A stretch of 64,000 bases of DNA, from the NCBI GenBank assembly GCA_964016885.1, contig OZ024762.1, forward strand, positions 21,266,001-21,330,000, given 5' to 3'. Shown here piece by piece: positions 918-13,922 of the stretch (the first letter of the stretch is position 1; each line of letters opens with the position of its first letter). This stretch comes from Eledone cirrhosa (Eukaryota). The position numbers were made by a program, and so were the translations under genes. Under the pieces are notes generated by a model. That model did not search any database. It saw nothing but the letters and a program-made list of their open reading frames with translations, and was not told the origin of the DNA.

Positions 918-925
918 ATATATAT

Positions 926-1135
926 GTGAGAAAAACCACAGACCCTCCATCTCAACTCACCTTTTGAAAAGCAGAAGAACTGCGAAACCGGTAAAGGAAC
1001 CAAATAAATATATATATTTAAAAAAAAAATAAGACTCCAGTTGCATTTTCGATTTCATCTCTTTTTCTTTATACTTTCACTCGTGTAGGACACCTCGGTT
1101 ATTTTTCATTTTGTAAAAAAAACCTCACTTTCTAA
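926..1135 (+). mobile_element. PLE-like pseudo-LTR fragment, family A
   Basis: Bounded by TA repeats; homologous to 41440-41773; contains an HHR followed by AATAAA. Confidence 0.7.
960..997 (+). ncRNA. Minimal type-I hammerhead ribozyme, U3-A8 core variant
   Basis: cctt-TTGAAAA-gcag(aagaa)ctgc-GAAA-ccgg-TA-aagg: stems I and II pair perfectly; palindromic CCGG stem III loop. Confidence 0.7.
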
Positions 1136-5145: not shown

Positions 5146-5198
5146 GAGATTCTACAGGACTAGAACTGTTTCATTCATTAGAAATCATCAGGAATCTC
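5146..5198 (-). ncRNA. Type-I hammerhead ribozyme (family C, inverted copy)
   Basis: Reverse complement of 5200-5252. Confidence 0.8.
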
Positions 5199-5199
5199 T

Positions 5200-5252
5200 G
5201 AGATTCCTGATGATTTCTAATGAATGAAACAGTTCTAGTCCTGTAGAATCTC
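5200..5252 (+). ncRNA. Type-I hammerhead ribozyme (family C)
   Basis: gagattc-CTGATGA-tttc(taat)gaat-GAAA-cag(ttctagtc)ctg-TA-gaatctc; 7-bp stem I, GUA cleavage triplet. Confidence 0.85.
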
Positions 5253-12050: not shown

Positions 12051-12248
12051 CAAAATAACAGATAAAAGTTTAAGCAAAGAATCGCTGCTTTCACCCTTAA
12101 AGGGATCTTCAGAAGATCCCGTTAAGGGTGAAAGCAGCGATTCTTTGCTTAAACTTTAATCTGTTATTTTAATAAATATTTGGTCTACGGTTTTATATAT
12201 TTTATATATATATTATCCTTATCGAGTCCTCTTCGGATTTTAGTCTTC
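12051..12248. mobile_element. Family D fold-back terminus
   Basis: ~58-bp inverted repeat centred at ~12110, which is the C of CAGAAGA, plus tail. Confidence 0.75.
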
Positions 12249-13666: not shown

Positions 13667-13895
13667 ATAATAATAAATTTGTAGACTAAAATCCAAAGAG
13701 GGCTCGATGAGGATAAATATATATCAAATATATAAGAACCGTAGAGCAAATATTTATTAAAATAACAGATTAAAGTTTAAGCAAAGAATCGCTGCTATCA
13801 CCCTGAACGGGATTTAATGGAGTTTCAGAAGATCCCGTTAAGGGTGAAAGCAGCGATTCTTTGCTGAAACTTTAATCTGTTATTTTAATAAATAA
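13663..13895. mobile_element. Family D fold-back terminus; HHR at 13821-13871 (+) with H17=G
   Basis: agtttCAGAAGAtcccgttaagggtGAAAgca...tgcTGaaact; inverted arm 13750-13813. Confidence 0.75.
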
Positions 13896-13922
13896 ATATA
13901 TATATATATATATATATGTGTG

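Follow-up and report, generated by a model that had tools for sequence, protein, structure and literature searches.

The motif that recurs in a 64,000-nucleotide stretch of Eledone cirrhosa DNA (the window) is most probably a minimal type I hammerhead carried by the terminal repeat of a Penelope-like retrotransposon that is abundant in the genome. We hold with good confidence that its C3-G8 tertiary pair was exchanged for U3-A8 in the ancestor of a clade of elements, and that it likely cuts the element RNA after GUA as a dimer. The original prediction had read three TTGAAAA motifs, at 964 and 41695 on the plus strand and at about 42048-42054 on the minus strand, as hammerhead cores with a compensatory U3-A8 pair. 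All three motifs are present in the sequence, and comparison of related sequences bears out the compensatory reading, in that the 3-8 pair covaries between lineages while N7 is free and positions 3 and 8 are fixed.

The copies in the window differ in how well their helices are formed (Table 1). In copy 1, stems I (CCTT/AAGG) and II (GCAG/CTGC, closed by G10.1-C11.1) are each 4 bp long, and the core reads U3-U4-G5-A6-A7-A8-A9, followed by GAAA after stem II. The palindrome is ACCGGT, and cleavage is predicted after GUA, between 993 and 994. Positions 964-993 thus fit the core of minimal hammerheads in Penelope-like elements (PLEs): U4, G5, A6, N7, A9, G12, A13, A14, A15.1-U16.1, and H17. Helices I and II measure 4 and 5 bp in copy 3 and 3 and 3 bp in copy 2. 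The claim that stem II varies in sequence but stays paired consequently holds for copies 1 and 3 and fails for copy 2, where stem II is incompletely paired because it has only three base pairs and a G-U closing pair. The hammerhead pattern occurs three times in the window and in none of 200 Markov-resampled windows. No ORF remnant accompanies the window copies (a tblastn search of the window was empty), and the fragment containing copy 3 is 92% identical to both terminal repeats (pLTRs) of a full-length copy, L148. The tail-to-tail inverted pLTR layout around copy 2 is typical of Penelope-like elements (PMC8557442, Fig. 2 legend). AATAAA or ATTAAA, at 1003-1008 in the window, lies 6-29 nt 3' of the cut in families A-E and 69 nt 3' of it in family C13.

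Table 1. Positions of the hammerhead motifs and of the element fragments that carry them (window coordinates unless L148 is named).
Feature	Position	Strand	Evidence or remarks
Family A type I minimal hammerhead (copy 1; putative)	960..997	+	Sequence, fold, cofold, genome pattern matches
Copy 1 parts	CCTT 960-963; TTGAAAA 964-970; GCAG-AAGAA-CTGC 971-983; GAAA CCGG TA 984-993; AAGG 994-997	+	
Family A Penelope-like element, 5'-truncated to its 3' end (pLTR), then (TA)n	925..1135	+	92% identity to the 3' end of ORF-bearing copy L031
Tail-to-tail inverted pLTR pair, insertion of older subfamily A2	41433..41776	.	Matches copy 1 at 76-80% by blastn
Hammerhead copy 2, U3-A8, stem II GCAT/CTGT	41691..41728, core at 41695	+	Sequence, fold
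Fourth copy, G5 to A, inverted partner of copy 2, predicted inactive	41555-41592	-	Missed by the original prediction
Copy 3, C13 family: U3-A8 and A13C (GCAA), stem I TTTT/AAAA, stem II GCATT/AATGC	42020..42058	-	TTGAAAA at 42048-42054
C13-family pLTR fragment whose tandem units upstream contain GGCGCAAAA and CCAATCA motifs	41893..42364	-	Terminates at (TA)n
3' end points	1073 and 1135; L148 5576 and 5540		

Rfam models do not recognize these motifs, and the original prediction had expected the same of standard CUGANGA searches: Rfam returned no hammerhead in the window at the gathering threshold, none in 880-1150 at E values up to 10, and none in five loci at E values up to 1. Its output comprised chance matches only, namely MALAT1 (E 0.29, far under gathering) and miRNA models driven by microsatellites, which also dominated a repeat search of the window. 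Folds of the monomers did not outperform those of shuffled sequences (z -0.94 to +0.66). The proposed dimer architecture, built on the palindromic CCGG loop, gained support from modeling, as cofolds placed intermolecular ACCGGU pairs at 0.92-1.0 for copy 1 and at 0.91-0.98 for C13; for representatives of families C and E the palindrome duplex was not favored (0.0 and 0.09). Family B has only 2 contiguous base pairs in stem I, and helix I of family E is also weaker. Families A and C13 lack an additional nucleotide separating positions 9 and 10.1, where families B and C have a U opposite U. Contigs of four runs (type unrecorded, RNA ends not visible) gave no splice-like joint against family A or against the upstream pLTR of C13, and contigs of run X1, weak data from a run of unrecorded type, had zero substitutions at or above 5% inside the motif.

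Conservation of TTGAAAA and of the stem spacing, on which the original prediction had staked itself, extends across the 3.0-Gb genome: the family A pattern TTGAAAA-N11-16-GAAACCGGTA has 17,081 exact matches, versus 1 for the reversed control, and many of the matches listed are tail-to-tail pairs. The motif lies on the sense strand, ~1.0-1.4 kb 3' of an ORF with an RT-linker-GIY-YIG arrangement. In copy L031, it is found 1.37 kb downstream of a 510-aa frame on the same strand that matches Pfam RVT_1 (E 5.5e-7) and GIY-YIG (E 8.3e-7), both above cut-off. This frame contains LIYAIKCKGCNEDYIG and has two cysteines between the GIY and YIG boxes; the linker before GIY-YIG is of the CX4CX2C type, reading CGRSNCGTC in family A and CDRPNCGIC in C13. 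Among named proteins, the nearest belong to Octopus bimaculoides (76%) and Argonauta hians (59%), which by itself makes an octopod host probable. The element's pLTRs and its tandem and inverted 5'-truncated copies fit an EN+ Penelope-like element with a C-terminal EN. From these sequence features, we classify the carrier as an EN+ Penelope-like element of Neptune/Nematis type, an assignment that does not tell the two clades apart.

Across 69 family A motif occurrences (overlapping loci unmerged), 32 have their 3' end at the late site and 19 at the early site beside TA repeats. In every family the 3' end falls at one of two fixed points next to TA repeats; the distance between them is ~62 nt in A and 36 nt in C13. 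Genomic copies retain 80-140 nt past the cut site. Divergence from the majority sequence has a median of 8.9% in family A (46 copies spanning several subfamilies). Upstream, GGCGC(A/G)AAA and CCAATCA are repeated in the pLTRs of families A and C13 (window 42120-42364 on the minus strand; L035, L082, and L153) and are absent from representatives of families B-E; we take these motifs to resemble E2F and CCAAT sites.

We compared positions 3 and 8 within and between families. Among 100 family A copies anchored by their flanks, TTGAAAA was kept in 95, the other five each having a different single change. GAAACCGG was kept in 85 of 100, with changes mostly at CpG. Genome-wide, single changes of the pair are rare and at background (132 C3-A8, 89 U3-G8). 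As these changes are rare, inserted copies seem to decay neutrally and hold little information on selection. A sister group with stem II GCAT/ATGC (1,495 matches) has U3-A8 in 99 of 100 among the matches listed, with U, A, C, or G at N7; family C (290 matches) has U3-A8 in 98 of 100 among the matches listed, mostly with C7. The patterns used for these two groups fix part of the core, so that information comes from positions 3, 7, and 8, which the patterns leave free, and for families B, C, and E, all found by patterns fixing much of the core, conservation there is partly by construction. Families B and C read TTGATAA and TTGACAA, sharing the core with flanks that cannot be aligned. Similarly, the flanks of the sister group and of family C gave no alignment with those of family A, and the proteins of both are 53-59% identical to that of family A.

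A protein-based scan, independent of the motif, yielded 86 loci outside this genome, in which a descriptor allowing all four 3-8 combinations found 23 matches. Eight were left out: five antisense, one antisense and well folded but from another element, and two within the ORF. The other 15 are sense-strand hammerheads beyond the ORF, and their 3-8 pair is Watson-Crick in 15 of 15 (12 C3-G8, 3 U3-A8, 0 mismatched). In a quick RT tree of 30 rows, families A, B, and C13, all U3-A8, form one clade (SH-aLRT 100); the families of this clade in the Eledone genome are 55-73% identical to each other in protein. The nearest outside relatives bearing a hammerhead have C3-G8 and 4-nt palindromic loops, and a hammerhead was found in only 6 of the 14 close outside relatives, several of whose contigs end soon after the ORF. 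Moreover, U3-A8 recurs on three other branches of the tree, including the sister pair L287/L295, whose stems are common to both and whose cores are U3-A8 versus C3-G8. On this comparison of sequences, U3-A8 is ancestral to the clade of families in the Eledone cirrhosa genome.

Several C3-G8 motifs in the same genome were considered separately. A few C3-G8 copies with family-like stems were rejected as an ancestral subfamily, L087 and L088 being junction artefacts. A canonical family, CTGATGA-N18-GAAACCGGTC (L051-L080, e.g. C1:14076716), accounts for most of the 105 C3-G8 matches that have the same CCGG palindrome. Family D, an old family (L185-L214; 680 first-look candidates) that could not be tied to any ORF, reads C-A-UGAAGA with a distal helix UUCCG/CGGAA and is homologous by its flanks to the U3-A8 family E. 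We infer that its core is C3-G8 with an inserted A. In family D, every copy with A8 (three loci) also has T at what is putatively position 3, hinting at a path from C-G through U-G to U-A.

The minus-strand copy in the window belongs to a second large family. The original prediction had noted G(A/C)AA after stem II; both forms are present, and the C is no noise of individual copies. Rather, GCAA (A13C) is the fixed C13 of a separate family and is not decay: the pattern TTGANAA-N11-16-GCAACCGGTA has 12,185 matches genome-wide, versus 2 in the control, and only 138 family-type matches have another nucleotide at position 13. Copies with A13 were rejected as an ancestral subfamily, as they look like later point changes; they make up about one third of the 100 non-C matches listed. 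Stem II differs from that of family A by one G-C to U-A pair. The family has a 655-aa open frame (L147) and a full element with two frameshifts (L148), whose direct pLTRs each contain the motif, 4,805 nt apart, with the first cut site 192 nt 5' of the ATG. A second hammerhead in L148 was found neither by the descriptor nor as any ribozyme by Rfam. Divergence from the majority has a median of 4.4% (53 copies). Mutation of A13 inhibits cleavage 10-100-fold, less than mutation of C3, G5, G8, G12, or A14 (PMC4075628, consulted in part). For the C13 family, the prediction is weak cutting or none; the family has nevertheless amplified.

The C13 element combines features of its relatives. By its ORF it stands nearer to families B and C than to A (71-73% protein identity to B versus 55-59% to A; C13 versus B has dS about 1.07 and dN/dS 0.15), while its pLTR is 74% identical to family A over the 120 nt before the cut and more weakly similar to about -260. 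The similarity to family A ends 2 nt after the cut site, and the far downstream part resembles family C (z 5.7) somewhat more than it does A (z 3.7). These alignments suggest that the C13 terminal repeat may be a mosaic whose breakpoint falls between +2 and about +74, although constraint that differs along the repeat would be an alternative. A more ambitious proposal, which we consider rather doubtful, is that C13 represents a working natural U3/A8/C13 core, the U3-A8 background tolerating loss of the near-invariant A13, and that its repeat came from family A through a junction formed at the cut site, either by cleavage and religation or by a template switch within a mixed dimer that the common ACCGGU palindrome holds together. 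If true, the C13 repeat would record in the genome both cleavage in vivo and an exchange between Penelope families mediated by the ribozyme.

How the motif might act can be outlined from the arrangement of the full element. In a read-through RNA with two direct pLTRs, the two ACCGGU palindromes would pair into a shared 6-bp helix III, and cleavage after GUA at both sites would release a unit-length RNA, 4,805 nt in L148. The element's endonuclease would then nick (TA)n sites, into which its RT would copy the RNA. Because genomic copies keep sequence beyond the cut, the template would be uncleaved tandem RNA or a religated circle, and an uncut or religated template has been proposed before (PMC4209133, in the part consulted). 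Selection would act through source elements, with inserted copies decaying neutrally. A Penelope minimal hammerhead had no activity in vitro as a monomer and low activity as dimers, according to the same part of PMC4209133, and we therefore expect slow cutting by the Eledone motif. Efficient cutting may not be needed, since C13 reached ~12,000 matches with its inhibiting change.

This last point also lends weight to another explanation, in which the hammerhead shape is kept for folding or dimerization (palindrome pairing, RT binding), cleavage is weak or dispensable, and both U3-A8 and C13 reflect relaxed catalytic constraint. The C13 family, with its own ORF, its young age, its copy number, and no second hammerhead found, is what such an explanation would lead one to expect, as is the sequence that genomic copies keep beyond the cut site. 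In the parts consulted, published work allows for functions besides self-cleavage (PMC4209133) and describes hammerhead function in EN+ PLEs as unclear, with Naiads proliferating without canonical ones (PMC8557442). Against it, the 3-8 pair is Watson-Crick in all 15 outside elements and in every plain-core family of the Eledone genome, a pair that pure dimerization would presumably not need; G5, G12, A14, A15.1-U16.1, and the H17 rule are all conserved as well. We judge this explanation, the main alternative, unlikely.

Far less probable is that the motif is a decayed relic of a C3-G8 hammerhead, produced by AT-biased mutation and passive amplification, or a hammerhead-like DNA promoter element centered on TTTGAA, a sequence that we take to resemble the CHR promoter consensus. 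The genome is AT-rich, the most frequent changes are C>T and G>A, and GGCGC(A/G)AAA and CCAATCA lie upstream in families A and C13, all of which would suit these ideas. The 3-8 covariation largely refutes them, however: only paired 3-8 states are fixed in plain-core families, families B and C share the core despite their unalignable flanks, and the U3-A8 state persists over a dS of about 1. The CHR reading of TTTGAA itself was rejected, as family C is without TTTGAA. Overall, we favor a U3-A8 hammerhead that likely cuts the element RNA.

We noted several other elements in the course of this analysis. On the minus strand at 56617-56651, a canonical-core motif, gtca CTGATGA ... GAAA AAAC TT tgac, has stems I and II and a non-palindromic loop, and is probably the decayed end of another PLE or retrozyme. 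An inverted pair of degenerate CTGATGA...GAAA motifs (5164-5191 on the minus strand, 5207-5234 on the plus strand) lies beside (TA)n, with flanks resembling L091/L092, a further C3-G8 family. Directly 5' of copy 1, positions 816-920 hold a different repeat, CAGAAGA/CTGAAGA-TCCC-N5-GGGT-GAAAGCAGC, with relatives near 12080-12182, 13747-13897, and 56185; it may be a rearranged hammerhead-type element. A non-LTR retrotransposon ORF remnant at 60907-62030 is presumably L1/Tx1-like, given similar frames in L040 and L043. Finally, some bacterial MAGs (SUP05, Bacteroidota, and Campylobacteraceae) include short contigs with Penelope-like ORFs (L315-L320, with hammerheads in L315 and L319), which are probably animal DNA contamination.

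These observations place ~30,000 hammerhead-like motifs in the Eledone cirrhosa genome that neither Rfam nor CUGANGA descriptors pick up. They also provide a natural experiment, in which related Penelope families of one clade have C3-G8, U3-A8, and U3-A8-C13 cores. The need of Penelope elements for their hammerhead has been described as open (PMC8557442, in the part consulted), and the C13 family makes this need testable. If its motif is dead, an ORF-bearing family has reached ~12,000 copies while lacking a hammerhead that cuts; should the motif be active, core rules and search descriptors need widening.

The U3-A8 pair itself is not new, and UUGAAAA in a Penelope-element hammerhead is already published. 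In the portions of the literature drawn on here, natural U3-A8 cores are described, with a statement that they were active in vitro (PMC3088659; Perreault et al, 2011), U3-A8 is reported in about 1,300 minimal hammerheads related to Schistosoma mansoni Cercyon PLEs (Cervera and De la Pena, 2014, PMC4209133), and the supplement of the latter lists UUGAAAAA, with a UUGAAAA core, in a PLE-associated motif. The Eledone motifs resemble the Perreault variants in their U3-A8 covariation and in the tolerated U10.1-U11.1 mismatch, which families B and C share. That study names A6C, A6a, U13a, and U15.1-A16.1 as natural core variants, and its text and text supplements, as far as covered, contain no A13 substitution. 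Likewise, the part of the PMC4209133 alignment considered contains no GCAA core. In the parts of the literature covered, main texts and text supplements, neither a natural A13C core nor a cephalopod PLE hammerhead was seen.

Like the PLE hammerheads described by Cervera and De la Pena (PMC4209133, in the part consulted), those of Eledone are of type I, with a short helix I and a palindromic helix III, are located in pLTRs, and occur as solo and inverted copies. They differ from the Cercyon motifs of that study in their host, an octopod rather than a trematode, in a helix II of 4-5 bp rather than 7-8 bp, in a 4-nt CCGG palindrome loop, and in a homogeneous population with a copy number more than tenfold higher. 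Family A also departs from the published consensus in having no extra nucleotide between 9 and 10.1, a feature that some published examples likewise lack. The carrier shares with Neptune/Nematis EN+ PLEs, as portrayed in the sections of PMC8557442 used here, a C-terminal GIY-YIG domain with two cysteines between GIY and YIG, a CX2-5CxxC linker, pLTRs, inverted 5'-truncated segments, and (TA)n targets. Similarly, the type I fold, the palindromic helix III, and the PLE link recall metazoan non-LTR retrozymes (PMC7229834; bioRxiv 10.64898/2026.07.22.740005; both consulted in part), but whereas retrozymes are short non-coding tandem units, the Eledone hammerheads reside in protein-coding elements of ~4.8 kb.
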